This document shows positions 28,835 through 55,580 of a stretch of 64,000 bases of DNA, one piece after another; within the stretch, counting starts at the first letter, position 1, and each line of letters begins with the position of its first letter. This DNA comes from an uncultured bacterium. GTDB taxonomy: Bacteria; Eisenbacteria; RBG-16-71-46; CAIMUX01; WJJG01. The DNA lies in assembly GCA_964612295.1 (NCBI GenBank), contig CAZTDY010000001.1, forward strand, positions 48,032 through 112,031, written 5' to 3'. The notes beneath the pieces were generated by a model, which did not search any database, had not been told where the DNA came from, and saw nothing but the letters and a program-made list of their open reading frames with translations. The translations under genes and the position numbers were made by a program.

Positions 28835-28837
28835 CGT

Positions 28838-30771
28838 TGGCGCATCCCCCCCGAAAGAACGGCATCCGGAGCCGGCGTTGGCCGTGGTCGCCCTTGCTCG
28901 GGCCGGCTCTCGCCCTGTTGGGGTGCGCGCTTCCCGCTCAGGCGGCCTCGGTCCTCTCACATTGGCAGATTCAGCCGGTCTACCGGACCGACTACAAGGT
29001 CAGTGAGTCGGAGAAGGACTGGAAACAGAGCCTCACTTTCGGGCGCGCGAGCGAGCGGCTCGCCTTTGACTTGCGCATGACCAGCGGCCGCCGGGAGAAT
29101 GAGCGGCGCAACAACTTCCGCCGCAACGACGACAAGATGATCCTCGGCCTCAGTCGCCCGATTCCGCTGGGCACGGTGAGCCTGGAGAGTTCTTTTCTCC
29201 GGCTCGCCGATATCACCGATCGATCGAAGAAGGCCAGCACGGACGAGACCGTGGACCTGGTGAGCAGCCTCGCTCTCCTCACGCGTGAGGATGCGTCGCT
29301 GAACCTCAAGATGAACGCCGGCTATCTGCGTGAGGTCAATACGCAGATCCGCTACGGGTCCCGGGCCTCGGTTGACTCGACCATCGCTCCGGGGTGGACC
29401 GGGGGGAGCTCCCTCAACAGCAAGTGGAATCCGGGGGACACCTTCGCGTTCACCGGTCGGTTCTTCTACGATACGACCGTTCAGGAATCGGAGACTTTCC
29501 GCACCGAGACGAGCAGCACCGATACCCTGCATACGGAGCAGAAGAACACGGATCGCTCCTTCTCCATGAACGGTGATTTCACGGTCGAATGGGACCGCTA
29601 CGAACTTCTGTCGGTGTCCTACCGGGGCGGTTTCAAGGACAGCGAATCGCAGTATTACCACGCGGCCGAAGAGGCCCAGGAGAGCAAGAGGATCGTGGAG
29701 CGGCGTTCGGTCATGCAGCTCTATGGTGAACGGAAGGACAGCTTCGGCTACGTGCTCGAATACAGCCTTCGCGAAAACGAGACCGACTTCGTCCTGCTCA
29801 ACACCGATCGGAGCAATACGTCGGACGACGTCTCGATCGGGGGGTACTACAACCTCGGCGGGATCCCTCTCCTGGGAAGCATCCCGGGAGTCAGGGGCAC
29901 AGAGTTCAGCGTGGAACTCAATTCCTCGGACGGGCAGTCCGTCACGCAGGGAACGGCGTCCTATAACACCCGGCGGCAGGAGCTCAATTCCGAGGTTCGC
30001 CGGCGGTTCGCAACAATTCTCGAACTCGTCGGCAAGTACCGCGAATCACTGACGCAGGATATGTACGGAGACGGAGCGCTGGACAAGGACCGCCTTCGGA
30101 CCGAGCTCAATGGGACCATCAAGTACACGCCGTCGCCGGGCTTCAGGGCAAACCTGACCTACACGGCCAAGTCCGAGGAATCGATCAAGATTCCGGCGGC
30201 GACCGCCGCGCAAACGCAGCAGAAAGACGACCACAACGTGAACGGGAGCTACACCTGGACGCTGCCGTTCGGCCCGATCATCAAGCAGACGATCCAGCTT
30301 GGGGCGACCTACACCTACTACGTTTTCGACGAGGACAAGAACGACCTGACCCGCAACAACCGCGTGGTCTCCGAACTCGATCTGCCGCTCTTCCCGGGCA
30401 CCATGCTGGGGATCAAACACACCTATCGGCGAAACGACAGTGGGGCCCATCAGTACGCGGAGGACCGGCGCTTCCGCACCTACGCGCCCAGCAGGAAGTC
30501 GCTTTCTCAGAACCTCAGGGTCAATCTGCGGTATGAGTTCCCGGGTGGATTCCACATTGCCGCCCAGCAGGTGATGGATCTGAATCACAACACCACGGTG
30601 AGTACGGGCAGTGTCCGCTCCACGGAGAAGTACGAGTTCACCGGCAAGGCCGGACTCAAGCGGACCTTTTCGAGCGGTCTCAATCTGACGGCTCAGATCC
30701 AACGTGTGAACAGCAACGTGAAGGACGACTTCTGGCGGGTCAATGCAGTGCTGGAGAAGACGTTCAAATGA
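28838..30771 (+). CDS. Putative outer-membrane beta-barrel protein (about 640 aa), family not recognised
   Basis: Likely TTG start giving the signal peptide MAHPPRKNGIRSRRWPWSPLLGPALALLGCALPAQA|AS. Amphipathic beta-strand periodicity runs throughout, and the C-terminus is ...FWRVNAVLEKTFK. Confidence 0.55.
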
Positions 30772-31388
30772 AGACTTCAACACGAATGCTCGTTTGCAGC
30801 CGACTCGCGGTCCTTGCGCTCCTGTGCCTGGGGTTTGCCGGGGGGTGCCTGTTCACGCCCCGGGAGCCCGAGGATCCGGGTGGGGGGGTGGCCCTTCCCG
30901 ATTGGGTCGATCCTACAACCCTGGGGGACGCCCTCGGCAATATGGAGCGAGCGTTGGAGGCCAAGTCGCTCACCAACTACGGTCAGTCCTTCAATGAGGG
31001 CGGAGAATTCGAGCTCATCTTTGACATCACCGATGAGGGTGAGCTGGGCGACCTGAGCATTTTCGAATCCTGGAGCGGCGAGCAGGAAGAGCAGCGAATG
31101 GACGGGATCGTTGCGGCCGCCGCTGCCGACGTCGAGGTCGAATGGGTGTTCACCGCCGAGACCGACTCAATAGACGAATCCGTTAGTGAGCGATATTATA
31201 AGGACTTAGGGTACAATCTCACCTTCAGCAAGGGCGGGGCCAGCGCGACCTACTCGGGCTCGGTGGACATGTGGTTCGAAGACAACGGCTCCGGGCTCTG
31301 GTTCATCTCCAGGTGGATCGACAAACGGTCCCACGCCACGAATATGACCTGGGGGTGGCTGAGAGCGAAGAACACGGTCGAGTTCTAG
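30768..31388 (+). CDS. Lipoprotein, hypothetical (206 aa)
   Basis: Signal peptide with lipobox (LALLCLGFAGGC). ATGA overlap with the upstream barrel gene. Paralogous to 31630..32262. Confidence 0.6.
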   Translation: MKTSTRMLVCSRLAVLALLCLGFAGGCLFTPREPEDPGGGVALPDWVDPTTLGDALGNMERALEAKSLTNYGQSFNEGGEFELIFDITDEGELGDLSIFESWSGEQEEQRMDGIVAAAAADVEVEWVFTAETDSIDESVSERYYKDLGYNLTFSKGGASATYSGSVDMWFEDNGSGLWFISRWIDKRSHATNMTWGWLRAKNTVEF

Positions 31389-31629
31389 GCCGGCCCTCGC
31401 CCGCTGGGCCCCGGCGTGTGCTTTCCCGCCCGCTCGCCCAACCGAAAGCGGACAAAGAGGTTGCCGAGCAGCCCCCGCGTGGGGCACGATTATTGCGCAT
31501 TGGCCGAAACCTGCCACGCGACAGTCGGTTTAGAGACACAGGATCGAGGCCGCCGCCGCATCCGTCGATAGGTGAGAATGCCCAACTAGAATAGGTTCGC
31601 CTTTCCGGCACCCTACAGGAGACTCAGTG

Positions 31630-32262
31630 ATGAAGATTCTCCCGCGTATATTGATGACTGTTCTCTTTTTGGCCCTGATGGTCCCCTTGGTCGGGTGTCC
31701 GTTCTCGACGAAGCCGAGTCCGAAGGATATCGTGGACCCGCCCGCGACCTTCAAACCCCGCACCCATCCGGACAGCCTGCTGCAGAATCTGATGCTGGCC
31801 TACGAACAGCTCATGCCGGCCGAGTTCGAGAGCCTGCTCGCGCAAGATTTCGTGTTCCAGTTTTCGGATATCGACGTGCTGGATGATGACGTGCCCTCCG
31901 ACGATCTCGCCCGGGAGGATGAGGTCGGCATTCATCAGAGGATGTTCGACAACGCATTGGTGCAGACGCTGACGCTGAGTTTTGAGTACGACATCTCCTC
32001 CCTGGAGGTCGACGAGCTGGTCTCATCGCCGGAAGACACCCTCTGGACGTTGCTCCTGACCAACGTGGATCTCTTTCTCTACGGCGGAACGCCCCAATAC
32101 CCTGACGAACCGGCCTCTTACGAGCTCGAGAATGGGGTCGAGCAGTTCTGGTTCCGCAAGAATTCCTGGACACACGACAACGGAGACCCTATATGGACTA
32201 TCGTACACTGGAAGGAGCATAACTTCGGCGGCGGCAAGCGGGAGGCCGAGCCGCTGCCCTAG
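31630..32262 (+). CDS. Lipoprotein, hypothetical (210 aa), paralog of 30768..31388
   Basis: Lipobox MVPLVGC. Shares segments with its neighbour (FELIFDITDEGELGD versus FVFQFSDIDVLDDD; SGLWFISRWIDKRS versus DPIWTIVHWKEHNF). Confidence 0.6.
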   Translation: MKILPRILMTVLFLALMVPLVGCPFSTKPSPKDIVDPPATFKPRTHPDSLLQNLMLAYEQLMPAEFESLLAQDFVFQFSDIDVLDDDVPSDDLAREDEVGIHQRMFDNALVQTLTLSFEYDISSLEVDELVSSPEDTLWTLLLTNVDLFLYGGTPQYPDEPASYELENGVEQFWFRKNSWTHDNGDPIWTIVHWKEHNFGGGKREAEPLP

Positions 32263-32756: not shown

Positions 32757-32900
32757 ACATGTGATTCAAACCTCTAAGAATCCCGGAATCGAACCGATTC
32801 GCCATGTATTGGAGAATGCGGTTGACCGTTTCGACCAGGCTCCAGTAGACTCTTGAGTCTGTGTTCATTCTGGCAAGAATGTGCGGCGGAGGAGTACTTT

Positions 32901-34481
32901 ATGGGTGGCAACAATCGGTGGAAGGTCCTGAGCTTGATCGTCTTGCTCGCGCTGTCCGCCTACGCGCTGTACCCCACGGTGCGGTATTACGCCATGGATA
33001 CGGAGCAGTTCGAAGCGCTGCCCCCGGCCAAGGCAGAGAAGCTGCGCGATAGCGCGCTCAACCTGGGACTGGACCTCCAGGGCGGTATGCACCTGGTCCT
33101 TGAACTGGACCGGAGCACGCTTTCGGCGGCCGAAGTCCCGAATGCGATGGAGAGGGCGATTCAGGTCCTGCGCAACCGCGTGGACCGATTCGGCGTGGCC
33201 GAGCCCAATATCCAGCGTCAGGGCGAAGACCGCATCGTGGTCGAGCTTCCCGGGCTTCTCGACAAAGAGCGCGCAGTGCGGCTCATTGGTCAAACGGCCT
33301 TGCTCGAGTTCAAGCTGGTCAAGAGCGACAACGAGACCGTGCGGCTGATCGAGCGCATCGATCGGGCTCTGGCGGCGTCGACGGTCTCGGCTGAGGCCGA
33401 CTCCGAGGAGATCGAGTTTCTCCACCCGCTGCTCGAGCGGATGCCCTTCTGGCCGGACCTGCCGTTCGGCGGCGCCTTCTTCCCCGAAGCGGAACGCGAG
33501 GAGATCGATCGGCTGCTGACCACGGTGGATGTCGATTCTCTGCTGCCGGTTGACGCGGCGCTTCACTGGGGCAAGGCGACGGAAGCCTATCAGGGCTATC
33601 GGGGCCGGGTGCTCTACATCACCGACCGTCGCGCGCAGATGGACGGAAGCGGGGTGGCAAACGCCACCCGGCGTATCGGTGGCGACGCGACGCGGCCGAA
33701 CGCCTCGAGCGTCAGCCTGACGCTCAACGCCTCCGGAGCTCGCAAGTTCCGCCGGATCACCTCTCAGAATGTGGGACGCTCGCTGGCCATCGTGCTGGAT
33801 TCGCTGGTGGCGTCGGCTCCGTACATCAAGGAACGAATCGCCTCGACGCAGGCCTCGATCACCGGCAACTTCACCGACGAGGAAGCCAAGGATCTCGCGA
33901 TCGTGCTTCAGGTCGGTGCCCTTCCGGCGGAGATCAACATCATCCAAGAGATGACGGTGGGGCCCTCCCTGGGTGCGGATTCGATCCGGATGGGGGTCAA
34001 GGCGGCCTTGGCCGGCGCGTCCCTCGTCGTGGTGTTCATGCTCATCTACTATCGGGGATGCGGTCTGCTGGCCTTGTTGGCTCTCGTCCTCAACCTGATC
34101 TTCCTGCTGGCGGCCCTCGCCGGAATGCGAGGGACGCTGACCTTGCCAGGCATCGCCGGGATGGTGCTCACCATCGGTATGGCGGTCGATGCCAACGTGC
34201 TCATCTTCGAGCGCGTCCGCGAGGAGTTGCGGACCGGCAAGAAGGTCCGCAGCGCTGTCGAGGCCGGTTACAATCGCGCCTTCCGGACGATTCTGGACGC
34301 CAACGTAACCACCCTCATCAGTTCGGGTGTGCTCTGGTGGATCGCGAGCGGCCCCATCCAGGGATTTGCGACCACGCTGTTTATCGGCATCCTGGCAAAC
34401 CTCTACACCGCCGTTCTGGTGACGCGCATGATCCTCGAGTCCGTGGCCAGCAAGAAGGGTGTCGAGTCGATTTCGATATAG
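32901..34481 (+). CDS. secD: Protein translocase subunit SecD
   Basis: MGGNNRWKVLSLIVLLALSAYALYP...GLDLQGGMHLVLELD...PYIKERIASTQASITGNFT... plus the C-terminal 6-TM domain. Confidence 0.9.
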   Translation: MGGNNRWKVLSLIVLLALSAYALYPTVRYYAMDTEQFEALPPAKAEKLRDSALNLGLDLQGGMHLVLELDRSTLSAAEVPNAMERAIQVLRNRVDRFGVAEPNIQRQGEDRIVVELPGLLDKERAVRLIGQTALLEFKLVKSDNETVRLIERIDRALAASTVSAEADSEEIEFLHPLLERMPFWPDLPFGGAFFPEAEREEIDRLLTTVDVDSLLPVDAALHWGKATEAYQGYRGRVLYITDRRAQMDGSGVANATRRIGGDATRPNASSVSLTLNASGARKFRRITSQNVGRSLAIVLDSLVASAPYIKERIASTQASITGNFTDEEAKDLAIVLQVGALPAEINIIQEMTVGPSLGADSIRMGVKAALAGASLVVVFMLIYYRGCGLLALLALVLNLIFLLAALAGMRGTLTLPGIAGMVLTIGMAVDANVLIFERVREELRTGKKVRSAVEAGYNRAFRTILDANVTTLISSGVLWWIASGPIQGFATTLFIGILANLYTAVLVTRMILESVASKKGVESISI

Positions 34482-34524
34482 CGCCTGCAGGGCCGGTTTC
34501 AGAGGCTAAGGAGATCTGGAAACG

Positions 34525-35442
34525 ATGTTGACCATATTTACTGACACACGATTCGACTTCATGACGCGCCGCCGCGTGGCCTACGGCATTTCGGCGGTGT
34601 TTATCCTGATCGGGATCGTATCGGTGTTTATGCACGGCGGCCTGCGGCTGGGAATCGACTTTGCCGGCGGGCGTCTGATCGGCCTTCGCACCAGCGAGAC
34701 GGTCGTTGTGGAAGACGTTCGGGCTGCCGTCGATGCCGCGGGATTCGAGGGGGCCGAGATTCAGGCCGTCAGGGGCACGAAGGATCTGCTCATTCGGATT
34801 CCGGACGTTTCCGACCAGCGGGGGGGCGAAGCCTCGCCGTCGGCTCGGATCATGTCCGCGATGGAATCGCAGTTGAGCGGCGTCGATGTCGAGTTGCTCC
34901 GCGAGGAGCTGGTGGGGGCGAAGATCGGGAATGAGATCCGCAAACAGGCCTTCTGGGCGATTCTGCTCTCTCTGGGCCTGATTATGATCTACATCGCCAT
35001 GCGCTTCGAATTCCGCTTCGGTCTGGGAGCGGTGGCCGCGCTGGCTCACGATGTGCTCATCACCCTGACCTTCTTCTCGCTGTTCGACAAGGAGATCACC
35101 ATGCCGGTGGTGGCAGCCTTGCTGACCATCGCGGGATACTCGATCAACGATACGATCGTGGTCTTCGACCGGATCCGCGAGCAGCTGGTTCGCCTGCGCC
35201 GCGAGTCGTTCCTGAACGTGATGAACATCAGCATCAATCAGACGCTATCGCGGACGGTGATCACGGCCATGACGACGCTGTTCACGGCCCTCGCGCTGCT
35301 CATTTTCGGTGGCGAGGTGATCAAGGACTTCGCCTTCGCGATGACCGTGGGCATTGTCGTGGGCACCTACTCCTCGATCTTCGTGGCCAGTTCGCTCGTT
35401 CTCGAGCTCCGCAAGGCCAAGGAGGCCAGAGGCGAGGCGTAG
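34525..35442 (+). CDS. secF: Protein translocase subunit SecF
   Basis: RRRVAYGISAVFILIGIVSVFMHGGLRLGIDFAGGRLI... plus the C-terminal TM domain (NDTIVVFDRIRE). Confidence 0.9.
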   Translation: MLTIFTDTRFDFMTRRRVAYGISAVFILIGIVSVFMHGGLRLGIDFAGGRLIGLRTSETVVVEDVRAAVDAAGFEGAEIQAVRGTKDLLIRIPDVSDQRGGEASPSARIMSAMESQLSGVDVELLREELVGAKIGNEIRKQAFWAILLSLGLIMIYIAMRFEFRFGLGAVAALAHDVLITLTFFSLFDKEITMPVVAALLTIAGYSINDTIVVFDRIREQLVRLRRESFLNVMNISINQTLSRTVITAMTTLFTALALLIFGGEVIKDFAFAMTVGIVVGTYSSIFVASSLVLELRKAKEARGEA

Positions 35443-35540: not shown

Positions 35541-35656
35541 GGCGGGGGGGGCCTGAGCGCCCAGGCCTCTCGGAACCGCCGAAGCGCCCAAGTGTTTGAC
35601 CCAGCAGGAGATGTCTGCAGAATCACCCCCAAGGTCGCAGTGGGAGGAATCAACCG

Positions 35657-36424
35657 GTGCGGAGCGTGCGGAACCCGTCCATCAACCCTTGCCGGGTCGG
35701 CATTCTGATTGCCCTGGTCGGCGCCATCCTGACCTCGCCGTCCGCCCAGGCCGCCACACCCAGCCCCGGGGTCACGCTCGCCCGCCTCAAGTACAGCGGC
35801 GGTGGTGACTGGTACAGCAACCCCACCTCGCTCCCCAATCTGGCCCAGGAGCTCGAGGCCAGAACCTCGATTCCGATCGCAACGCACCAGGAAGCCCGGG
35901 TCAGCGTTCTTGACGAGGAGCTGTTCGACTACCCGGTTCTCTACATGAACGGCCATGGCCGGATCAGCATGACCGAGACCGAGGCCCTGCGCCTTCGCCG
36001 GTATCTGACCGGGGGCGGATTCCTCTGGGCGGATGACAACTACGGCATGGACGAGAGCTTCCGCGCGCTTCTGAAGCTGGTCTTCCCCGGCCGGACGCTG
36101 GCGGAATTGCCGTTCGATCACCCGATCTACCACTCTTTCTATGACTTCCCGCTCGGCCCCCCGAAGATCCATGAGCATGACAAAAAGCCCCCTCAGGGGC
36201 TGGGTCTGTTCGATCGTGGGCGGTTGGTGGTGTTCTACACCTATGAGTCCGATATAGGAGATGGGCTGGAAGACGAGGGGATTCACGACGATCCTTCCGA
36301 AAAGAGAGAAGAGGCCATGCGGATGGCGGTCAACGTGATCGTCTATGCGGTGACCGGCGAGGCGTCCCCGCGACCGGTAAGCTCGGCGGCCCTGCCGGGC
36401 GATTCCCGAGGAATGCAGCGATGA
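35657..36424 (+). CDS. Secreted DUF4159-like protein (GATase1/ThuA-like fold)
   Basis: Signal peptide ...SPSAQA|AT, then GGGDWYSNPTSLPNLAQEL...PVLYMNGHG...LRRYLTGGGFLWADDNYG, which matches my memory of the DUF4159 signature. ATGA overlap with the next gene. Confidence 0.6.
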   Translation: MRSVRNPSINPCRVGILIALVGAILTSPSAQAATPSPGVTLARLKYSGGGDWYSNPTSLPNLAQELEARTSIPIATHQEARVSVLDEELFDYPVLYMNGHGRISMTETEALRLRRYLTGGGFLWADDNYGMDESFRALLKLVFPGRTLAELPFDHPIYHSFYDFPLGPPKIHEHDKKPPQGLGLFDRGRLVVFYTYESDIGDGLEDEGIHDDPSEKREEAMRMAVNVIVYAVTGEASPRPVSSAALPGDSRGMQR

Positions 36425-39400
36425 GCCAGCAAAAGGAGTTTGAACGCAGGCTGCGCACGGCGGCCAACGGTCGCTACAGGCGAGTGGTCTTCGAAGGCGC
36501 GGCTCGCTGGCTGGCCTGGTGCGTTTCCGGTCTGGTCATCCTCTTCCTGATCGGCTTCCTCCTGCCGCCGACGCGTCTGTGGTCGGGTGTCATGGCTGCC
36601 GCGGCCCTCGTCTGGTTCGGGGCCACGACGGTGCTGTTTCTGTTCCGGGCGCTCGCGCGTCTGCCCCGGCTGGATGATTACGCGCTCTGGCTCGAGGAGC
36701 GAGGCGGGCTCAAACGCAACGAGCTGATCAACGCGCTCCAACTCGAGCGAGACGCCGCCCGCTGGCAGCCGGATTTGGTCTCGCGCGAGCTCGTCGGAAG
36801 ATCTCTTCGGCGCGCGGGCCAGGTCATCTCCTCGCTCAACCTCGGGACGCTCCACCGCGAGTGCGCGATTCCTCCCCGCTTGGGTCTGGCCTTGGCCGCC
36901 TTGACGCCTCTGGTGATCCTCTGGCTGGCGGCGCCGCTGCGTTTCGCCGATGCCACCCAGCTCTTCCTCTGCGCCGGGTCCGAGGGGGTGGTCCCGGCCG
37001 TCGAACTCACCGTGTCGCCGGGAGACCTGAAGGTCGAGAGAGGCGCCTCGGTGACGATCGAAGCCACGGTCGAAGGCCGACGCCGTCCCGGCAACGCGCG
37101 CCTCGAGATGCGCCGGCCGGGCGGCGAGTGGAACCAGGCCGACATGGTGCGCGGCGAGGCCTCGGGCGACGCCCGGGACCACTACCAGTTCGTGGCCAGC
37201 AACCTGGGCGGCGATCTCGAATACCGCGTCCGGGCAGGGTGGGCGACGAGCGCGCCCCACCGCATCCGGGTCCTCGAGCGCCTGCAGGCCCTGGGCTACC
37301 GGAAGCACTACGATCCGCCTTCCTACACCGGACTCCCGCGCCAGCGAGAGGTATCATCGACCGGAGACATCGCCGCGCTCTTCGGCACCGAAACCACCTT
37401 GGAGGTTCGTCATCGCCGCGCGGGCGCGAGCGGTCGGCTGCGTTTCCTTCCCCTGAATGAGACCCGCCCCCTGGCCGTGGGCGGCCAGGGACAGCTGCGG
37501 GCGAGCTGGTCCATGCACGAGAGCGCGGACTATCTCGTGGAGCTCTTCGATCGCGAGGAGGGCGACACCTGGGTTTCAGACACGTTCCATGTCGAGGTGG
37601 TCCCGGACCTGGCCCCCGCGATCCGCCTCCTGGAGCCTTCGCAGCACACCAAGGTCCCCGCCGACATGCGCGTGACCCTCGTGGTCGATTGCGTGGACGA
37701 TTTCGGCATCACCGAGCTGGCCATGGTCTACGGACGTCCGGGGGACGATCCGCAGCGCGTGGAATTGGCTCGCTGGGACGATCACAAGGAAGCCCGCCTG
37801 ACCTATCACTGGAACATGGAAGAGGTCTCGCTCTTGCCGGGTCAGGAGCTGCACTACTTCCTGCAGCTCTACGACAACGATCCGCTGAACGGACCCAAGA
37901 TGGCCGAGACCGAGGTCTTCAGCGTGCGTTTCCCGAGCATGGCCGAACTCTACAGCGATGCCGAGCAGGGCCGCGAGGAGGAGATCGGCTCGCTCGAGGA
38001 GGCGCTCGAAGTCCAGGAGAACCTGCAGGAGGAACTCAAACAGGTCGCGCAGGAGATGCTGCGCGAGGAGGAGATCTCCTGGGAGAAGCACCAGGAGATC
38101 AGCGACCTGCTCGAGCAGCAGAAGTCACTGGCCGAGAAGGTCAACGATATCCAGCAATCCTTAGACGAGTCACGCCAGCGCATGGAGAACCAGAACCTCT
38201 TTTCCATGGAGATGATCGAGAAGGTCGAGCAGATCCAGGATCTGGTGGGCCAGATCCAGAGCGATGAGTTCCGCGAGCTGCTGTCCGAAATGAATCAAGC
38301 GCTGCGCAACATGAACCAGACCGAGCTCCAGCAGGCGATGGAGCAGATGAAGATCACCCAGGAGGAGATCAGCCAGTCACTGGACCGGACGCTGCAGATG
38401 CTCAAGCAGCTCCTGGCGGAAGAGAAGATCGACCGCATCATGCAGGAGATACAGACTCTGCAGGCCATGCAGGAGGCCATCAACCGGCAGCTCGAAGGCG
38501 ACCAGCAGCAGAAGGCTGATGCGCAGGAGGGCCAGGAGAAGACCGACGACCAGAAGGAGCAGTCGGATGCGCCGTCCGACTCGCTGTCCTCCGGGGGGCA
38601 GTGTCCGATGAGTAAGGAAGAGTCACAGGAGCTGGCCCAGCAACAGGAAGCCCTGCGCGAGCAGCTCGAGAAGCTGCAGAAGGAGCTCGAGGAACTCACC
38701 AAGGAGTGCAAGAAGGACTTAGAGAAGCTGGCGGAGGCCCTCAAGGAGATGATGGAGCAATCTGCTCAGGAAGAAACCCCGGAGCAGATGCAGCAGGCCC
38801 AGCAGGCGATGGAGCAGCAGAACCGCGACGCGGCCCTCAAGTTCGGTCGGAAGGCCAAGGAGGGTCTTGCGCAGATGGCGTCCAGCATGGCGCAGCTCCA
38901 GAGCGACGTCGACTTAGAAGCGGCGGAACGTCTGGCCCGAGCGCTCTACAATCTGGCCAATCGGATGGTGCAGGCCTCGCTCCGGCAGGAGCATCTCGTC
39001 CGCCTGGCCGAGGAGACCGGTCCGCGCGAGCTGGCCGTGGCTGAACAGCAGCTGGTCGAGGAGCTGAGCGCTCTCGGCGATTCGCTGTTCCAGATCTCGA
39101 AGCAGACCGCCGTCGTCAACCGTGGTCATCTGCGGGCCATGGGGGAGGCGTATCAGAAGGTCCTGGACACGCGCAATCTCTTCGAAAGCGGCCGCCGGTC
39201 CCCCGCGCTCCAGCGCGCGCAGGAGTCGACCCTGGCGATCAACAGTGCGATCAAGAGGCTGGTCGAAGCAGCCGGCGAGATGACCTCGCAATGTTCCTCG
39301 AACTGTCCCAACCCCTTCAACCGGATGCAAAGCCTGACGAACCAGCAGTGTCAGCTCAACCAGCAGACCCAGCAGATGATGCAGGGAATGCAGGCGCAGC

Positions 39401-39855
39401 GGCCCACCATGAGCCAACAGGAGTCGCTCATGCGTATGGCCGGCCGCCAGAAGATGATCCAGGAGGGCCTCCAGGAACTGCAGGGCGAGATGAAAGAGTC
39501 GGGCAAGATGATGGGCGATCTTGGCGATGCGATCGAGGAGATGGAAGAGGTCATCGAGGAGTTGCGCAACCGGAACGTCGATCAACGCATCGTCGAACGC
39601 CAGGAGCGTATTCTGAATCGGATGCTGAGCGCCCAGCGCTCGGTTCGTAAGCGGGATCAATCGGAAGAAAGGCTCTCCCGGGCGGGGATCAGTCCGCCCG
39701 ACCGCAATAGCCCGGAGGGCATCGACATGGGTCGCTCACGCTCGGAGATTCTCCAGCGAGCCATGCTGCGCGGGGCCCAGGACCCGGTGCCCGCCGAGTA
39801 TCGCGGCCTGGTGGAGACCTATATGCGTTCGCTACTGCGCGGGACCACCCGGTAG
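36421..39855 (+). CDS. Giant (1144 aa) membrane-anchored protein: 2-3 N-terminal TM helices, a beta-rich middle region and a long Gln/Glu-rich coiled coil. Possibly DUF4175-like.
   Basis: TM helices WLAWCVSGLVILFLIGFLLPP and VMAAAALVWFGATTVLFLF. Residues about 500-1050 are dominated by E/Q/L/K heptad-like sequence (LEEALEVQENLQEELKQVAQEML...QQMMQGMQAQRP). Uninterrupted ORF. Confidence 0.8.
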   Translation: MSQQKEFERRLRTAANGRYRRVVFEGAARWLAWCVSGLVILFLIGFLLPPTRLWSGVMAAAALVWFGATTVLFLFRALARLPRLDDYALWLEERGGLKRNELINALQLERDAARWQPDLVSRELVGRSLRRAGQVISSLNLGTLHRECAIPPRLGLALAALTPLVILWLAAPLRFADATQLFLCAGSEGVVPAVELTVSPGDLKVERGASVTIEATVEGRRRPGNARLEMRRPGGEWNQADMVRGEASGDARDHYQFVASNLGGDLEYRVRAGWATSAPHRIRVLERLQALGYRKHYDPPSYTGLPRQREVSSTGDIAALFGTETTLEVRHRRAGASGRLRFLPLNETRPLAVGGQGQLRASWSMHESADYLVELFDREEGDTWVSDTFHVEVVPDLAPAIRLLEPSQHTKVPADMRVTLVVDCVDDFGITELAMVYGRPGDDPQRVELARWDDHKEARLTYHWNMEEVSLLPGQELHYFLQLYDNDPLNGPKMAETEVFSVRFPSMAELYSDAEQGREEEIGSLEEALEVQENLQEELKQVAQEMLREEEISWEKHQEISDLLEQQKSLAEKVNDIQQSLDESRQRMENQNLFSMEMIEKVEQIQDLVGQIQSDEFRELLSEMNQALRNMNQTELQQAMEQMKITQEEISQSLDRTLQMLKQLLAEEKIDRIMQEIQTLQAMQEAINRQLEGDQQQKADAQEGQEKTDDQKEQSDAPSDSLSSGGQCPMSKEESQELAQQQEALREQLEKLQKELEELTKECKKDLEKLAEALKEMMEQSAQEETPEQMQQAQQAMEQQNRDAALKFGRKAKEGLAQMASSMAQLQSDVDLEAAERLARALYNLANRMVQASLRQEHLVRLAEETGPRELAVAEQQLVEELSALGDSLFQISKQTAVVNRGHLRAMGEAYQKVLDTRNLFESGRRSPALQRAQESTLAINSAIKRLVEAAGEMTSQCSSNCPNPFNRMQSLTNQQCQLNQQTQQMMQGMQAQRPTMSQQESLMRMAGRQKMIQEGLQELQGEMKESGKMMGDLGDAIEEMEEVIEELRNRNVDQRIVERQERILNRMLSAQRSVRKRDQSEERLSRAGISPPDRNSPEGIDMGRSRSEILQRAMLRGAQDPVPAEYRGLVETYMRSLLRGTTR

Positions 39856-39894
39856 GGGCGGACAAGACCCTCTGGACGGAAAACGGGACGTGTC

Positions 39895-41565
39895 ATGCGA
39901 GGAAATCGCCCAGCATCTTATCTAAAGGCCGCGGGCCTGGTGTGCCTTCTGGCGCTCAGTCCTCTCGGAGCGCCGGCCCGCGCGCAGGAGATGCGCCGCC
40001 CCATCCAGGTGCCGACCAGCCCGGTCACGCGTGACCTGCGAACCGCGAGCGCGTTGGTCAAGCAGGGACAGATTCCCGCGGCCATCGAACTGCTCGAACC
40101 GCTCCTGGAGCGGTATCCGGGCGAATCGCGGGTCATCCGGATGCTGGGAGAGGCCTACCAGCGCATCGACGGGTACGATGAGGCGATCGAACTCTACCGG
40201 AACGAAATCAATCGAGCGGGTGGCCGGACGACCGAGTTCTGGAGCCTGATCGTCAACGCCCAACAGCGTGCCGACCGCTGCACCGATGCGGTCGATACCC
40301 TGCTCGAGGTCCTCGAGCGGGAACCCGCCTGGCTGAATCGATTCCGCGATCAGCTCGAACTGGTCGTGACGGACTCGACCTGCGGCCGCCCGGCCTTGGC
40401 CTATCTGGAGGAGCGCGCCAAAGAGAAGAGCTGCCCGCCGGCCTGGCGCGAGGCGCTGGGCAATGTCTACGTGGTTCTCGAACGGGATCAGATGGCGCTC
40501 GAGGTCTACACCGAGCTCGACCGGCAACGGCCTGATCGGGGACAGGCGATCTACAATCTTGCGCGCACGCTCACCCGCAGAGGCAAGCTCGAGGCCGGCG
40601 TGGCGGCGTACGACTCCGTGCTCAGCATATCGAACACGCGCCAGACGCTCGAACCGGCCCTCTACGAAAAGGCGGTCCTGATCGAACGCCTGGGACGTCC
40701 TGAAGAGGCGGCCGCGCTCTACACGCAGATGACCGAGCAATACCCTCACACGCAGCTCTCGATGCGGGCCGAACTTGCCAGGGCCGGGCTCTACCTGGGG
40801 CCGCTGGGGGACGTCGAAAAGGCCGAGGCCGCCTATCGCACCGTGCTCGCGGATCTCGACAGCAGGCCGCAGAACCGCGCCTTTAGGACCATTCGGGAGG
40901 ATGCTCGGCTGGCCCTGGCGGAGTGCGCGCTGAGGCTGGGGCAGTTCGACGAGGCCGACAGCGTCTACACCCGGCTGGTCAGAGAATCGAACAACAAGCG
41001 GACCAAGGAGCGGTGCGCGTTCGAGCTCGGACAGCTCCGGTTCTTCCAGGGGGATCTCGCGGGGGCCGAAGCGGCCTACTACGCGCTGACCGACGACTAC
41101 CCTCAGGGGGAGTGGGTCAACGATGCGCTCGAGCAGGCGTTGCTCATCGGGGAATTCGGGATGCGGGTCCCGGGCACGTTGACCGAGTTCGCCGAGGCGT
41201 TGTATGAACGCCGGAGGGGCGATCTGGAGGCCGCGGAGAGGATCTGTACAGAGTCGCTGGCGGACACCACGATCGTTCTTCTGCGCGACCACTTGCGTAT
41301 GCTGCAGATGCAGCTGGCCGGAGATCGGAATCGCTGGTCCGAGGCCGATTCGGTGCTGGCCGTCCTGCTCGACCAGGATCCGGACACCCGTGTCGGGGCC
41401 CGGGCCCTCCTCTGGATGGGGGGGCGCGCCGAGGCCGATCCCCTGAAGGCGGACAAGGCTCAGCAGTACTACGAAGAGGTCATTCTCCGTTATCCTGACT
41501 CATTCGAAACCCGGCAGGCGCGGGATCGCCTACAGGTTCTGCGCAGACGATCCGAGGATTCATAG
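39895..41565 (+). CDS. Secreted tetratricopeptide-repeat protein
   Basis: Signal peptide LVCLLALSPLGAPARAQE. Multiple TPR-like helical pairs (AYQRIDGYDEAIELYRNEI, AIYNLARTLTRRGKLEAGVAAYDSVL, ALYEKAVLIERLGRPEEAAALY). Confidence 0.85.
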   Translation: MRGNRPASYLKAAGLVCLLALSPLGAPARAQEMRRPIQVPTSPVTRDLRTASALVKQGQIPAAIELLEPLLERYPGESRVIRMLGEAYQRIDGYDEAIELYRNEINRAGGRTTEFWSLIVNAQQRADRCTDAVDTLLEVLEREPAWLNRFRDQLELVVTDSTCGRPALAYLEERAKEKSCPPAWREALGNVYVVLERDQMALEVYTELDRQRPDRGQAIYNLARTLTRRGKLEAGVAAYDSVLSISNTRQTLEPALYEKAVLIERLGRPEEAAALYTQMTEQYPHTQLSMRAELARAGLYLGPLGDVEKAEAAYRTVLADLDSRPQNRAFRTIREDARLALAECALRLGQFDEADSVYTRLVRESNNKRTKERCAFELGQLRFFQGDLAGAEAAYYALTDDYPQGEWVNDALEQALLIGEFGMRVPGTLTEFAEALYERRRGDLEAAERICTESLADTTIVLLRDHLRMLQMQLAGDRNRWSEADSVLAVLLDQDPDTRVGARALLWMGGRAEADPLKADKAQQYYEEVILRYPDSFETRQARDRLQVLRRRSEDS

Positions 41566-41574
41566 GGAAGACCA

Positions 41575-42870
41575 ATGAGACGAGAGAGAACACAGCAAGC
41601 CAATCGCCTTCTGGGATGCTGCCTACTGGCCGCGGCTCTTCTGGCCGGCCTGGGCGGGTCCCCGGCCGACGCCCGGCTCCTTGTTCCGATGGACCTGACC
41701 CAGACCGACCATCTGAAGGCCTATGGCGTCGCCTATGACGCGTTGGAAGACGGCCAGACGGTCGAGTGGCTGCTCAACTACCGCAGCGGATCGTTCCTGA
41801 TGGAGGATACCCAGGGGAACCGAAGACGCGCGCTACTGCGCGGGGTGCGCGTGGAGCTGACCTCGGCCGTGGAGGAGGCGAGCATCTACGCCGAGATCGA
41901 GGGGGAGAACATGGAGGTCATCCTCCTCGAGAAGGCCCCCCGGGTTGCCGTCTATGCGCCCCCTCACGGCGATGAGCCGTGGGATGACGCGGTCATGCTG
42001 GCCCTGGAGTACGCGGATATCCCCTTCGACCAGATCTATGATCAGGATGTGCTCACCGGCGAGACGTTCCAATACGACTGGCTGCACCTGCATCACGAGG
42101 ACTTCACCGGGCAGTACGGCAAGTTCTACGCTGGATTCCGGCATGCCGATTGGTATCAGGGTCGGCAGCGGCGAATGGAGGAGGAAGCGCAGGCCGCGGG
42201 CTTCGCCAAGGTCTGGCATCACAAACATGCCGTGATCAAGCGGATCAAACAATATGTGGCCCAGGGCGGCTTCCTCTTCGCCATGTGCTCGGGCACCGAT
42301 AGCTTCGATATCGCCCTGGCGGCGGACGGGGTGGACATCGTGGACACGGTCTACGATGGGAATCCGGCCGATCCCGCGGCCCAGACGAGGCTCGACTTCA
42401 GCAACACACTGGCCTTCGAGAACTTCCAGCTCGAGATGAACCCCTACGTCTACGAGTTTTCCAATATCGACATGAGCGACTACTCGAAACTGAGGGGGGC
42501 TGCGGCCGACTTCTTCGTGCTCTTCGAATTCTCCGCCAAGGAGGATCCGGTGCCGACCATGTTGACGCAGTGTCACGTGGATCTGGTCAACGGGTTCCTC
42601 GGCCAGACCACCAGCTACAACCGGGAGACGCTCAAGCCCTCCACGCTGGTTCTGGGAGAGGTGCCGGGCACGCAGGAGGTCAAGTACATCCACTCGAACT
42701 TCGGGCGCGGCACCTGGACTTTCTTCGGCGGCCACGATCCCGAAGATTATGAGCACCGCGTCGGGGACCCGCCGACCAAACTCGAGTTGCACAAGAACTC
42801 GCCCGGATACCGCCTGATCCTGAACAACGTCCTGTTTCCCGCCGCGAAGAAGAAAGAACGCAAGACGTAG
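41575..42870 (+). CDS. Secreted class-I glutamine-amidotransferase-like (ThuA/DJ-1 fold) protein with a Cys nucleophile-elbow-like motif
   Basis: Signal peptide LLGCCLLAAALLAGLGGSPADA, then RVAVYAPPHGDEPWDDAVMLALEYADIPFDQIYDQDVL and QGGFLFAMCSGTDSF (a G-x-C-x-G-like elbow). Confidence 0.55.
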   Translation: MRRERTQQANRLLGCCLLAAALLAGLGGSPADARLLVPMDLTQTDHLKAYGVAYDALEDGQTVEWLLNYRSGSFLMEDTQGNRRRALLRGVRVELTSAVEEASIYAEIEGENMEVILLEKAPRVAVYAPPHGDEPWDDAVMLALEYADIPFDQIYDQDVLTGETFQYDWLHLHHEDFTGQYGKFYAGFRHADWYQGRQRRMEEEAQAAGFAKVWHHKHAVIKRIKQYVAQGGFLFAMCSGTDSFDIALAADGVDIVDTVYDGNPADPAAQTRLDFSNTLAFENFQLEMNPYVYEFSNIDMSDYSKLRGAAADFFVLFEFSAKEDPVPTMLTQCHVDLVNGFLGQTTSYNRETLKPSTLVLGEVPGTQEVKYIHSNFGRGTWTFFGGHDPEDYEHRVGDPPTKLELHKNSPGYRLILNNVLFPAAKKKERKT

Positions 42871-42938
42871 TCCGCGCGCCTTGTCGAGCCCCCCCCTCTC
42901 GACGCGTGAGCGGGCTTTACGCGCGCCTCCCATCGCGT

Positions 42939-42947
42939 GTTAGAATC
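42939..42947 (+). promoter_or_regulatory. Extended -10-like element TGTTAGAAT upstream of the M3 peptidase gene
   Basis: gcgtgttagaatcactgg, about 35 nt upstream of ATG 42982. Confidence 0.2.
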
Positions 42948-42981
42948 ACTGGCTGAACCGTTTCTCAGAAAGGGGATTTCC

Positions 42982-44805
42982 ATGACACAGGACGTTCAAG
43001 AAGCCATGGCTCTGCCGCACTGGGATCTGACCAACGTATACACAGGACTCGAGACCGAGGACTTCGAGCGGGATCTGTCCGCGCTCAAAGCCAAACTGGA
43101 CCGGATCGAGGCCTTCGCCGCACAGGCCGGGGTCGAGCGCTTGGCATCCCCGCCTTCGGATCTGACGGAAGCGACGAGTAAGCTCGAGGAGATGATCGCC
43201 CAGTTCAACGAGATGCTGAAGCTGCTCTCGACGATGAACGCCTACGTGCACAGCTTCGTCTCCACCGACTCCTACAACGCTGCGGCCAGCAAACGCCTGA
43301 GCGAGCTGGAGCAGCTCGACGTTCGGGCCGGCAAGGTCCACACCCGGTTCCAGGGCTGGGTCGGCTCTCTCGGCAAGAAGCTCGACCAGATCCGCGCCTC
43401 ATCCGCGGTGGCCGAGGAACATGGCGAGGTGCTGAAGGACATCGTCGTTCGCAGCCGTTTCCTGATGGATACGAAGCTCGAGGATCTGGCGGCCGAACTG
43501 GAGCTCTCGGGCGGGGGCGTGATGTGGAAGCTTCAGGGCAACGTCACCAGCCAGCTCAAGGTTCCCTTCGAACGAGACGGCAAGACCGAGCAGCTTCCGA
43601 TGACCATGATCCGCAACCTCGCGGCCGATCCGGATGAGGACATCCGCCGTCGCGCGTATGAGACCGAGCTCAAGGCCTGGGAATCGATCCGCGAATCGGT
43701 GGCTTTCTCGCTGAACTGTGTCAAAGGGTCAGCCGGCACCCTCGCCCGGTGGCGGGGCTACGACGATGTCCTGCACGGCGCTCTTCTGCGCAATCACATC
43801 GACCGGCCCACGCTCGATGCCCTCTTGGGTTCGATCCGCGTATCCTTCCCCATGTTCCGCCGGTATCTGTCCAGCAAGGCACAGAAGCTGGGCAAGGAGA
43901 AGCTCCCCTGGTGGGATCTCTTCGCACCGGTGGGCAAGGTGAATCCCACCTATGACTGGGCCGAGGCCCGGAGCTTCATCGAGGAGCAGTTCGGCGGCTT
44001 TCATCCCGATCTGGCGAGCTTCGCCAAGCAGGCCTTCGATAACAACTGGATCGACGCCGAGCCGCGGGACGGAAAGCGCGGCGGCGCATTCTGTATGCGG
44101 GTGCCCGGGGTGGAGGAGTCGCGAATTCTGGCCAATTTCGACGGCAGCTTCGACCAGATGGTCACCCTGGCGCATGAACTCGGTCACGGATTCCACAACT
44201 CCTGCCAGACGGGCCTGCCGATGATGAGGCGGGGATCTCCAATGGTGCTGGCGGAGACGGCCTCGATCTTCTGCGAGACGATCTGTTTCAATGCCGCACT
44301 GGAGAAGGCTTCCGCGGAAGAGCAGCTGTCGATCCTCGAGAATCAGCTGCTGGGCGCGACCCAGGTGACGGTGGATATCTCATCGCGGTTCATCTTCGAA
44401 TCGGAGGTGCTCCGCCGCCGGGCCGATGCCGAACTCAGCGCGGACGACTTCTGCGAGATCATGGTGGCGGCTCAGAAGGAGACCTACGGCGAGGTCTTGG
44501 ACTTCGAGCATCTGCACCCCTACATGTGGCTCTTGAAGCCCCACTACTACTATGGGGACCTCAACTTCTACAACTTCCCCTACGCATTCGGCCTTCTGTT
44601 CGGGATGGGCGTTTACGCGATCTACCGGAAGGAGGGGGAGGCCTTCATTCCTCGGTACAAGGAGCTGCTGCGAAGCACCGGCGCCGGGGAGGCGGCCGAT
44701 CTGGCGGCGCGGTTCGGGATCGACATCCGCTCCACCGACTTCTGGAAGGGGAGCCTCGACCTCGTGGCGGCCCAGGTGGACCGCTACTGCGAGCTGAAGG
44801 GGTAG
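42982..44805 (+). CDS. M3-family oligoendopeptidase (PepF-like)
   Basis: Zinc motif HELGHGFHN with downstream E. Length and helical N-terminal domain are typical of M3B. The start is ATG 42982 after aaagggga. Confidence 0.85.
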   Translation: MTQDVQEAMALPHWDLTNVYTGLETEDFERDLSALKAKLDRIEAFAAQAGVERLASPPSDLTEATSKLEEMIAQFNEMLKLLSTMNAYVHSFVSTDSYNAAASKRLSELEQLDVRAGKVHTRFQGWVGSLGKKLDQIRASSAVAEEHGEVLKDIVVRSRFLMDTKLEDLAAELELSGGGVMWKLQGNVTSQLKVPFERDGKTEQLPMTMIRNLAADPDEDIRRRAYETELKAWESIRESVAFSLNCVKGSAGTLARWRGYDDVLHGALLRNHIDRPTLDALLGSIRVSFPMFRRYLSSKAQKLGKEKLPWWDLFAPVGKVNPTYDWAEARSFIEEQFGGFHPDLASFAKQAFDNNWIDAEPRDGKRGGAFCMRVPGVEESRILANFDGSFDQMVTLAHELGHGFHNSCQTGLPMMRRGSPMVLAETASIFCETICFNAALEKASAEEQLSILENQLLGATQVTVDISSRFIFESEVLRRRADAELSADDFCEIMVAAQKETYGEVLDFEHLHPYMWLLKPHYYYGDLNFYNFPYAFGLLFGMGVYAIYRKEGEAFIPRYKELLRSTGAGEAADLAARFGIDIRSTDFWKGSLDLVAAQVDRYCELKG

Positions 44806-51189: not shown

Positions 51190-51330
51190 TCGATACCAGC
51201 CCTTACGCGATTTGCGCTTCTGCAGAGATCCGCCCCACTCTCCGAAAATTAGGCTAGGAGATCCCCTTTCGTTGCTGGACTCCGTCCGGTTCGGTCAGGC
51301 CGGGCGTGCAAGCCCTGGGAGAGACGCGCA

Positions 51331-55488: not shown

Positions 55489-55580
55489 GATTTGAACGCC
55501 CCGCTGGATGAGCCGCGGGATGGGAACGGATCGGCAAACGGGACAAGAGGATTCGAATCGCTATGCTAAGGAGTCGATCG

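Follow-up and report, generated by a model that had tools for sequence, protein, structure and literature searches.

Among the closest described systems are envelope-located, multi-gene blocks linked to the AAA+ ATPase MoxR. The Bacteroides aerotolerance (Bat) operon (MoxR, DUF58, BatA, BatB, BatC, BatD, BatE) combines a TPR protein with large membrane-anchored proteins; to our knowledge, the Bat operon of B. fragilis carries neither DUF4159 nor DUF4175, and no counterpart of the g4 gene described below. A second kind of operon, of the composition DUF4159-MoxR-DUF58-BatA(VWA)-DUF4175, probably includes the cmdA-D genes (RL3499-RL3502) of Rhizobium leguminosarum, of which cmdC and cmdD are presumably the DUF4159 and DUF4175 carriers. 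Published reports describe cmdA-D mutants with envelope and morphology defects, as well as a genetic interaction of the operon with the TPR protein TtpA (PMC5700661; bioRxiv 10.1101/551135).

In the present study we analysed a block of four ORFs (g1-g4), all on the + strand, which spans positions 35657-42870 of a 64-kb window (the whole stretch of DNA analysed). The g1/g2 junction is a 4-nt ATGA overlap, and gaps of 39 and 9 nt separate g2 from g3 and g3 from g4, respectively. These ORFs and spacings match exactly the four coupled, co-directional genes described in an earlier note on this DNA, whose family assignments (DUF4159, DUF4175, TPR and GATase1-like) all hold, and whose quoted motifs were recovered: GGGDWY, GHG and GGFLWADD in g1, CSSNC...QQCQLNQQ in g2 and FAMCSG in g4. 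The block and its putative upstream signals are as follows:

35596..35623, + strand: weak match to a sigma-70-like promoter (TTGACC-16-CAGAAT), within the 214-nt intergenic stretch that follows secF
35642..35648, + strand: ribosome-binding site GGGAGGA, 8 nt ahead of the GTG start of g1, read from the sequence
35657..36424, + strand: g1, exported DUF4159 protein (PF13709), 255 aa, GTG start
36421..39855, + strand: g2, 1144-aa inner-membrane protein of divergent DUF4175 type (PF13779, phmmer, AF2 model)
39895..41565, + strand: g3, exported 556-aa TPR protein that contains three TPR_6 modules similar to those of YbgF/CpoB (TPR families)
41575..42870, + strand: g4, exported protein of GATase1-like fold, 431 aa, uncatalogued family (structural model, no family match)

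The promoter match is not significant, since the scan, which did not extend to FCB-type promoters, gave one site against 0.9 expected by shuffling. All four products appear to carry a signal-like segment or a membrane anchor, in line with the earlier note: hydrophobic, signal-like N-terminal segments were found in g1 and g4 by hydropathy analysis and in g3 by eye, and g2 contains three transmembrane (TM) segments.

The analysis revealed that the block is conserved across many phyla of Bacteroidota-related (FCB) bacteria. In 18 of 80 species-level loci, all four genes stand side by side in the order g1-g2-g3-g4; these loci come from at least six named phyla (Eisenbacteria, Latescibacterota, Krumholzibacteriota, KSB1, Marinimicrobia and Fibrobacteraceae), and full contiguity was also seen in loci L001-L003 and L087. 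According to the gene calls of L001, L002 and L087, the overlaps at the g2-g3 and g3-g4 junctions measure 4 to 17 nt, and the g1-g2 overlap of L087 is 4 nt, as in the window. The recurrence of the same gene order in so many phyla indicates that the block is more than a chance arrangement. The earlier note had made its reading depend on HMM support and on co-occurrence; HMM support is present, and the four genes are carried together by related as well as distant genomes.

The block consists of two separable pairs, g1-g2 and g3-g4: of the 46 loci whose upstream sequence is long enough, 17 carry g3-g4 but not g1-g2 and 15 carry g4 by itself, and L085 contains g1-g2 alone. On these counts of unlinked g4 and of g3-g4 without g1-g2, a single obligate complex is not demonstrated. 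They favour an explanation in which an envelope module (g1-g2) and a secreted enzyme with a TPR helper (g3-g4) are independent, uncoupled neighbours, as do the lone g1-g2 of L085, locus L088, with tandem T9SS-sorted g4 paralogues and none of g1-g3 nearby, and Bernardetia, in which a solitary g4 has a sensor kinase on one side and a class A PBP on the other. We consider this explanation rather doubtful, because it does not sit well with same-order contiguity, including gene overlaps, in that many phyla, nor with the fact that operons of the MoxR type have independently recruited a TPR protein and another GATase1-like protein to the side of DUF4159/DUF4175.

Profile searches of approximately 50 ORFs covering the 64-kb window detected no MoxR, DUF58 or VWA gene, which bears out, within the window, the previously noted absence of the ATPase and VWA core. 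Two distant g2 homologues (P0153 and P0166) reside in DUF4159-MoxR-DUF58-BatA/VWA-DUF4175 operons (loci L084 and L086, from metagenomes), which directly shows the association of DUF4159 and DUF4175 with MoxR-DUF58-VWA systems that the earlier note gave as background, and supports the view that the window carries the same pair without the ATPase core. Both operons combine DUF4159 with a giant protein of approximately 1100 aa, which joins Ig-like domains and a helical region to a TM anchor at its N-terminus, is homologous to g2 (E=1e-87 to 1e-95 with a purpose-built HMM) and shares with it invariant PxYTG and DDFG motifs and a C-terminal Tyr. A TPR protein belongs to both operons, and L086 has a further GATase1_like protein as well, so that similar components recur whether or not the ATPase is present. 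The window block differs in that (i) it lacks genes for the ATPase, DUF58 and BatA/VWA, (ii) its g1 is only 32-33% identical to their DUF4159 proteins, and (iii) sequence searches detected no equivalent of its g4 in either locus.

The presence of DUF4159 and DUF4175 on the flanks of MoxR-DUF58-BatA in these two operons, together with the fact that inspection covered 64 kb of the genome, would also fit a Bat/MoxR system of the classical aerotolerance type, with the ATPase, DUF58 and VWA components encoded elsewhere and acting in trans. This seems quite improbable: none of the approximately 20 full four-gene loci whose gene tables were examined contains MoxR, DUF58 or VWA, and the MoxR-less type has its own subtype of g1, with a GHG motif and 46-58% identity among its members versus 32-33% to MoxR-linked g1. 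Furthermore, BatD found no match among the window proteins, and g3 reached 19.6 bits with the TPR_BatC model, whose cutoff is 175. With neither of these and no VWA or MoxR gene, the label "Bat-like" fails as a family assignment.

The g1 product matches PF13709 over nearly its full length (E=5e-65, 219 bits, profile positions 1-201 of 202), in line with the DUF4159 assignment of the earlier note. It also matched PDB 4i66 (Hoch_4089; E=3e-15), and Pfam, relying on structure, counts DUF4159 among the families of its class I glutaminase clan (PMC4702930). The fold of g1 is GATase1-like, with Asp-Asp occupying the elbow position of the would-be nucleophile; D127 is invariant in the orthologue comparison, and identity to orthologues of other phyla amounts to 46-58%.

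The similarity of g2 to PF13779 (DUF4175) is limited to 140 of the 825 profile positions (36.9 bits, cutoff 27.3); phmmer found matches among DUF4175-annotated proteins, and TIGR02302 matched neither g2 nor its relatives. The AF2 model of g2 (mean pLDDT 83) and its hydropathy and composition define the following parts:

36508..36936, + strand: membrane anchor; TM1 36508-36564, TM2 36589-36645, TM3 36880-36936 (hydropathy, model helices)
37000..37929, + strand: three Ig-like beta-sandwich domains, aa 194-503 (AF2 model)
37939..39666, + strand: Gln/Glu-rich helical region, aa 507-1082, approximately 15 helices (composition, AF2 model)
39292..39306, + strand: CSSNC (CxxxC) in a loop between helices, where model pLDDT is <50

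The TM segments correspond to aa 30-48, 57-75 and 154-172, and the basic N-terminus predicts that the helical loop between TM2 and TM3 is cytoplasmic. Structure comparison of the Ig-like domains matched only generic tandem Ig/FN3 arrays; P300-x-Y302-TG, D426-D427-FG and D485 within these domains are invariant across 47 sequences, among them the homologues that belong to MoxR-linked operons. The helical region (approximately 575 residues; 15.4% Gln, 14.5% Glu) accounts for a local AT skew of +0.26. Thus, of the layout given in the earlier note, the TM helices (three), the beta-rich middle and the Q/E-rich helices stand, but the single continuous coiled coil does not, as the model breaks it into approximately 15 helices. 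The reported Cys pair is present, although it is confined to the Eisenbacteria clade (Cys in 20/21 and 21/21 homologues) and is missing from distant homologues of g2.

Many TPR families match g3 (TPR_6, 84.9 bits), in agreement with its previous description. Its three YbgF-type TPR_6 modules (TIGR02795, E=4e-24) and periplasmic location are reminiscent of CpoB/YbgF of the Tol-Pal system, but the TIGR02795 score (85.4 bits, cutoff 90.1) arises from repeated TPR units, g3 is twice as long as CpoB, and no tol-pal genes adjoin it. In 31 of the 46 loci g3 is found upstream of g4 on the same strand, directly adjoining it in about two-thirds of these, with clpX or other genes in between in the rest.

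The g4 product had no Pfam or NCBIfam match in profile searches. It represents an uncatalogued, very strongly conserved family that was overlooked in the earlier note and is new here. Its model displays a class I glutamine-amidotransferase-like fold, and the following segments stand out:

42085..42102, + strand: HLHHED, aa 171-176, after the strand neighbouring the elbow strand (model)
42271..42297, + strand: FLFAMCSGT, strand-Cys238-helix, nucleophile elbow (model and conservation)
42730..42747, + strand: GHDPED, aa 386-391, directly following the last core strand
42844..42867, + strand: basic C-terminal tail AKKKERKT (conservation)

No other part of the block is as conserved as g4, which keeps 54-63% identity from one phylum to another; 92 of its 431 positions are at least 97% identical among 256 full-length members (median identity 56%). 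Cys238 is kept in 255/256 members and lies between strand 233-237 and helix 239-250 (pLDDT 78-93), which supports the GATase1-like fold with an AMCSG elbow suggested previously. Also near-invariant are H174 (255/256), D176 (256/256), H387 (255/256), D388 (254/256), P389 (256/256) and E390 (245/256). Class I amidotransferases carry His-Pro-Glu after the last strand, to which the His-x-Pro-Glu stretch of g4 may be parallel; GHDPED is a candidate source of the His/acid partner of Cys238, with a geometry deduced from a part of the model of pLDDT <50. Of 255 full-length members, 241 end in KT; a minority of homologues has a linker and a T9SS sorting domain in place of the tail (Por_Secre_tail in 6/7 long representatives; TIGR04183 at 50 bits). 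Judging from the signal-like N-terminal segments and these sorting domains, g4 is exported.

Members of the class I glutamine amidotransferase-like superfamily (ThuA/GH42-middle/PF07090/DUF4159; C26-type SpuA, PuuD) have no sequence-level match to g4, which differs from them in an additional N-terminal subdomain (approximately aa 34-120) and in some 100 inserted residues (aa 255-355). Moreover, the classical amidotransferases are cytoplasmic, whereas g4 is apparently exported. A profile comparison aligned the g4 elbow with GGFLWADD of g1 (48% probability, just 17 columns).

NCBI source names on P0005, P0025, P0058, P0366 and others read asparagine synthetase B and are the sole support for that identity, which is practically out of the question: profile searches found no Asn_synthase or class II amidotransferase domain in g4, and the domain content already refutes it; the export signal, the T9SS domain of some members and a class I-like fold in 431 aa also speak against it.

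Its fold and conserved residues make g4 a probable secreted thiol hydrolase. The closest structural neighbours (GH42 middle domain, ThuA, 3rht, STM3548) are mostly non-catalytic, which, like the shortness of the g4-g1 alignment, counts against the reading preferred below. Alternatively, g4 could be a binding or oligomerisation module, like the GH42 middle domain, ThuA-like proteins or the GIFT domain of IFT52/GldG, in which Cys, His and Asp would serve metal or ligand binding or structure. We regard this as unlikely in view of (i) the enzyme-typical level of conservation, (ii) the Cys placed by the model exactly at the nucleophile elbow, (iii) the apparent amidotransferase-like His-x-Pro-Glu and (iv) true hydrolases of the fold among the structural matches (SpuA, lin1909, Pdx2 and gamma-glutamyl peptidase).

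The reading that we prefer, at a probability of roughly 0.4, is that the block encodes an ATPase-less, envelope-associated assembly typical of the FCB superphylum, in which a scaffold would position the probable thiol hydrolase. The envelope-spanning scaffold or stress-tolerance system proposed in the earlier note is likewise conjectural. Homology shows g1 and g2 to be the DUF4159 and DUF4175 pair that in other bacteria brackets MoxR, DUF58 and BatA/VWA. Anchored in the inner membrane by its three TM segments, g2 may project its Ig-like domains and helical array into the periplasm and act as a scaffold across it, on which g1, a soluble exported GATase1-fold protein with Asp-Asp at the nucleophile site, and g3 would dock. 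As a periplasmic TPR adaptor, g3 may form the second pair with exported g4 and hold it, possibly via the conserved basic KT tail. With His174/Asp176 and His387/Asp388 flanking the elbow Cys in sequence, g4 might be a thiol-dependent hydrolase or transferase whose target would be an amide or ester bond in the envelope or at the cell surface, with peptidoglycan, lipoprotein or surface-polymer components as candidate substrates. It is worth mentioning that, where g4 is sorted by T9SS, as in some Bacteroidota, it would act beyond the outer membrane and at a distance from an inner-membrane scaffold, which counts against this reading. Since the cluster occurs without an ATPase or VWA partner, the DUF4159-DUF4175 pair may serve as the effector in MoxR-linked systems, for which MoxR, DUF58 and BatA would be an optional driver.

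When the sequence was re-read, the four-ORF layout described in the earlier note and all of the motifs quoted there were found where they had been placed. The genes of the block (designated g1 to g4) and its immediate neighbours are as follows:

secD-secF, 32853-35442, upstream neighbour of the block
g1, 35657-36424, + strand, DUF4159 protein, 255 aa, GTG start codon with GGGAGGA ahead of it
g2, 36421-39855, + strand, DUF4175-type protein, 1144 aa
g3, 39895-41565, + strand, TPR protein, 556 aa
g4, 41575-42870, + strand, GATase1-like protein, 431 aa
M3 oligoendopeptidase gene, 42937-44805, downstream neighbour of the block

The junctions within the block are an ATGA overlap (g1-g2), a 39-nt gap (g2-g3) and a 9-nt gap (g3-g4). 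Promoter and terminator scans produced matches no better than background. For both g2 and g4, the nearest relatives with a name come from Candidatus Eisenbacteria MAGs, which makes an origin of the window in this FCB-group lineage most likely. Only in close relatives do secDF and pepF lie beside the block. Three co-directional ORFs upstream of secDF (28735-30771, 30768-31388 and 31627-32262, encoding 678, 206 and 211 aa, respectively) gave no Pfam or NCBIfam match; the last of these recurs directly upstream of secD in the related loci L002 and L004.

The distribution of the block was surveyed in two steps: a g4 scan of GTDB genomes, one for each species, followed by a search of the flanks with HMMs built from the window proteins and their orthologues. 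The order g1-g2-g3-g4 was present in 12 of the 46 loci with at least 8.5 kb upstream, as well as in 6 loci on shorter contigs, and its carriers were labelled Eisenbacteria, Latescibacterota, Krumholzibacteriota, KSB1, Marinimicrobia and Fibrobacteraceae, among others. The homologous loci L001-L003 and L087 likewise showed this order. According to the gene calls, both g2-g3 and g3-g4 overlap by 4-17 nt in L001, L002 and L087, while g1 and g2 overlap by 4 nt in the window as in L087. Chance juxtaposition of the four genes was rejected. The g3-g4 pair occurred without g1-g2 in 17/46 loci, g4 occurred without g1-g3 in 15/46, and a further locus (L085) carried g1-g2 without g3-g4. The block is therefore divisible, despite its recurring order. 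These separate pairs, set against the recurring four-gene order, bear on the rival explanation that g1-g2 and g3-g4 are functionally independent, which we regard as a real though doubtful possibility.

A complete clpX gene (zf-C4_ClpX and AAA_2 domains) is located between g3 and g4 in Ignavibacteria and Melioribacteraceae (e.g. L052:8626-9882; also in loci L038, L042, L047, L051, L053, L055, L056, L060, L067 and L075), and the distance from g3 to g4 across it is constant (1.27-1.35 kb in 11 loci). In the 407-aa protein P0221, from a metagenomic fragment, a g3-like TPR protein, represented by its C-terminal portion, continues in frame into g4 from approximately profile position 99; a true fusion of g3 and g4 would account for this, as would an artefact of assembly or a frameshift.

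The g1 product is a full-length DUF4159 protein (219.2 bits against PF13709, cutoff 25.9, profile positions 1-201 of 202), which also matched an unannotated crystal structure, PDB 4i66 (E=3e-15). Pfam groups DUF4159 with ThuA, GATase1_like and the GH42 middle domain as members of the class I glutaminase clan (PMC4702930). Among phyla, g1 proteins of the MoxR-less type share 46-58% identity, whereas those of the MoxR-linked type share only 32-33% with g1 of the window and are missing its GHG motif. These differences in identity and in the GHG motif suggest that the two are long-separated subtypes and not the result of recent loss. A plasmid tblastn search with g1 turned up nothing beyond a lone DUF4159 gene on a Corynebacterium resistance plasmid and a Gemmatirosa megaplasmid lacking annotation, neither of which was helpful as to context. 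The former gene (L089:11962-12579, plasmid pCRULAC1 of Corynebacterium crudilactis; 46% identity to g1) adjoins a dihydrofolate reductase gene within a mosaic of IS26 and aminoglycoside/sulfonamide resistance genes, and was presumably captured from an unrelated donor.

The match of g2 to the DUF4175 model (PF13779) reached 36.9 bits (cutoff 27.3), covering only 140 profile positions (191-330 of 825). Comparison with DUF4175-annotated proteins showed clear homology, with E values of 1e-23 to 1e-36 and homologues of 970-1240 aa, and g2 has the common DUF4175 architecture of N-terminal TM helices followed by a region of about 1000 aa predicted to be extracytoplasmic; it is treated here as a divergent member of this family. 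Hydropathy analysis indicated 3 TM helices. In the AF2 model (mean pLDDT 83) a TM hairpin is followed by a helical loop, TM3, three Ig-like sandwiches (aa 194-503) and approximately 15 helices (aa 507-1082), and a fold search with g2 returned generic tandem Ig/FN3 arrays and nothing else. The helical region is rich in Gln (~15%) and Glu (14.5%), and this composition accounts for the +0.26 AT skew seen at 38-40 kb. Residues P300, Y302, G322, P406, D426, D427, D485 and Y1134 are invariant in 47 homologues, including very distant ones. The CxxxC motif pointed out in the earlier note is indeed present, but the alignment of homologues showed it to be specific for the Eisenbacteria clade. The model TIGR02302, which we take to represent an alphaproteobacterial DUF4175-like family, matched neither g2 nor its MoxR-linked relatives. 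AdvA of Acinetobacter, a much smaller division protein annotated as DUF4175, was set aside as a relative of g2.

The g3 product is a TPR protein with three YbgF-like TPR_6 modules. Its score against TIGR02795 (CpoB/YbgF) was 85.4 bits, below the equivalog cutoff of 90.1, and came from three repeated stretches.

Two distant homologues of g2 (~20% identity) are encoded in metagenomic operons of the type DUF4159 - MoxR - DUF58 - BatA/VWA - DUF4175 (L084 and L086), and these operons show directly that DUF4159 and DUF4175 accompany MoxR-DUF58-VWA, as had been proposed. Upstream in both operons there are genes for a TPR protein and a weakly Peptidase_C13-like protein, and in L086 also for a 766-aa GATase1_like protein. 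The Peptidase_C13-like protein (L084:1240-2256 and L086:4037-5059; ~340 aa, weak match to this legumain/caspase-fold family) is possibly a second thiol peptidase-like component of the ATPase-containing version.

The block had been interpreted as a Bat-like cluster devoid of the MoxR/DUF58/VWA core. The second part of this description was borne out, since no MoxR AAA+, DUF58, VWA or BatA domain was detected in the block or among the approximately 50 ORFs of the 64-kb window. Formal Bat membership had to be abandoned: besides the missing VWA component, neither g2 nor any other product matched the BatD Pfam domain, and g3 scored only 19.6 bits against the TPR_BatC model NF047507 (cutoff 175). The absence of the core concerns the window itself, and this bears on the explanation that a MoxR set encoded elsewhere in the genome acts in trans, which we consider improbable.

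Operons of the MoxR-DUF58-VWA type (Bat, Cmd and their relatives) are widespread, and their mutants have envelope, shape and stress defects; to our knowledge, no mechanism has been established for them. The cmdC and cmdD genes presumably carry DUF4159 and DUF4175 and, if so, would be homologous to g1 and g2. In Rhizobium leguminosarum the cmdA-D operon (RL3499-RL3502) has been linked to defects in the envelope and in morphology, and it shows a genetic interaction with the TPR protein TtpA (PMC5700661; bioRxiv 10.1101/551135). The functional literature on relatives of the block concerns MoxR-type operons only. The block is a new ATPase-less variant of this known, mechanistically unsolved type of envelope operon, and the variant is joined to an uncatalogued, extraordinarily conserved exported family, g4.

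The g4 product gave no Pfam or NCBIfam match even at E<=10, and a PDB sequence search was also empty. In its AF2 model, of moderate quality (mean pLDDT 62.7; core 78-93), the three-layer alpha/beta/alpha core superposes on known members of the class I glutamine amidotransferase-like fold, to which g4 is assigned at the superfamily level. Foldseek agreed with this assignment and also matched the C26-type hydrolases lin1909 and SpuA. A profile-profile comparison of g4 with g1 matched only 17 columns (48% probability), so that a common origin of these two GATase1-like genes is no more than suggested.

More than 8000 homologues of g4 were found. The protein of the window is 54-63% identical to those of Cloacimonadota, Latescibacterota, Bacteroidota, Ignavibacteriota, Chlorobiota, Calditrichota, Marinimicrobia, KSB1, Zixibacteria, Krumholzibacteriota and Fibrobacteraceae. 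In a 50% clustering of 15 billion proteins the family collapsed to ~20 full-length representatives, and the 150 best matches listed included no relatives more distant than the family itself. Across 256 full-length sequences with a median identity of 56%, at least 97% identity is reached at 92 of the 431 positions. D176 and P389 are present in all 256 sequences, H174, C238 and H387 in 255, and D388 in 254. The model places C238 at the nucleophile elbow of the fold, with strand 233-237 before it and helix 239-250 after it, and the HLHHED motif after the strand neighbouring the elbow strand. The residues H387-D388-P389-E390 (96-100% conserved) follow the last core strand, where the pLDDT is below 50. 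Class I amidotransferases have His-Pro-Glu after their last core strand; by analogy, GHDPED of g4 may occupy the same site, in a part of the model that is unreliable. Most structural neighbours of g4 are non-catalytic, and g4 may like them be a non-catalytic binding or metal-site module; set against the near-invariant Cys, His and Asp residues, this explanation appears unlikely.

The C-terminal residues of g4 are KT in 241 of 255 full-length members. In the window the protein has the basic tail AKKKERKT (42844-42867) and no T9SS sorting domain (Por_Secre_tail/TIGR04183); such a tail might serve as a ligand for TPR domains, contact the membrane or direct sorting. A minority of homologues (among them P0191, P0193, P0198, P0200, P0204 and P0211) carry a T9SS type A sorting domain (50.4 bits, cutoff 23) in place of the basic tail. 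This domain marks g4 as an exported protein, which in the sorting-domain lineages is sent across the outer membrane. The locus L088 (8352-11605) contains tandem g4 paralogues of 525 and 534 aa, both with a T9SS C-terminal sorting domain, followed by a third sorting-domain protein; g1-g3 are not nearby. The reading of g4 as a lipoprotein (LLGC near the N-terminus) was rejected, as this Cys lies ahead of the hydrophobic core and lacks conservation.

Several members of the g4 family bear the NCBI label "asparagine synthetase B". This identity is excluded by the domain content, as both the Asn_synthase domain and the N-terminal class II (Ntn) domain are lacking, and no tie was established between the family and the "asparagine synthetase B" of the MliR regulon of Bizionia. 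Our literature search found no functional study of DUF4159, DUF4175 or the T9SS-linked "asparagine synthetase B". None of the g1-g4 products matched a PADLOC model, and a defence-system reading was therefore rejected.

Elsewhere in the window, a 627-aa protein (11663-13546, - strand) combines an N-terminal Omp28-like region with a FlgD_ig domain at its C-terminus. The latter domain, also found on the gene following g4 in L001, may serve as a tag for secretion or sorting that is specific to the lineage. A 526-aa ORF (55563-57143) is a possible outer-membrane beta-barrel, matching BamG (33 bits) and PorV/PorQ family models only weakly. A 670-aa HEAT-repeat ORF (51116-53128) shares 74 nt with the end of the NAD(P)H-hydrate repair gene that precedes it (49546-51189), and its start codon was probably called too early.

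In the mechanism that we propose, g2 would be a scaffold anchored in the inner membrane and reaching into the periplasm, on which g1, whose GATase1 fold has Asp-Asp at the elbow, would dock along with the TPR protein g3. The latter would hold g4, plausibly via its conserved basic tail, and Cys238 of g4, together with His387 (or His174) and an acidic residue, would cleave or transfer an amide- or ester-linked group of an envelope or surface component. Parts of the same kinds recur whether or not MoxR is present, which suggests that DUF4159-DUF4175 is the effector and the ATPase/VWA set an optional driver. Taken jointly, g4 would represent an unrecognised family of exported Cys-His hydrolases of the GATase1 fold, universal or nearly so in the FCB superphylum and T9SS-secreted in some Bacteroidota, which with g3 and the DUF4159-DUF4175 scaffold would form an ATP-independent machine modifying an FCB-specific envelope or surface component. 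We hold this reading tentatively, with a probability of roughly 0.3.

Where the DUF4159-DUF4175 pair occurs naturally without the ATPase and VWA components, the presumed effector is set apart from its driver and the system is simpler to dissect; were the joint reading true, this pair would be identified as the effector module of MoxR/Bat/Cmd operons. The g4 protein, propagated in databases under a wrong enzyme name, ranks among the best-conserved FCB-superphylum proteins for which our searches returned no family model, solved structure or literature. Its near-invariant Cys/His/Asp cluster provides an immediately testable hypothesis of an enzymatic role at the envelope or cell surface, in a group with medically and ecologically important Bacteroidota among its members.
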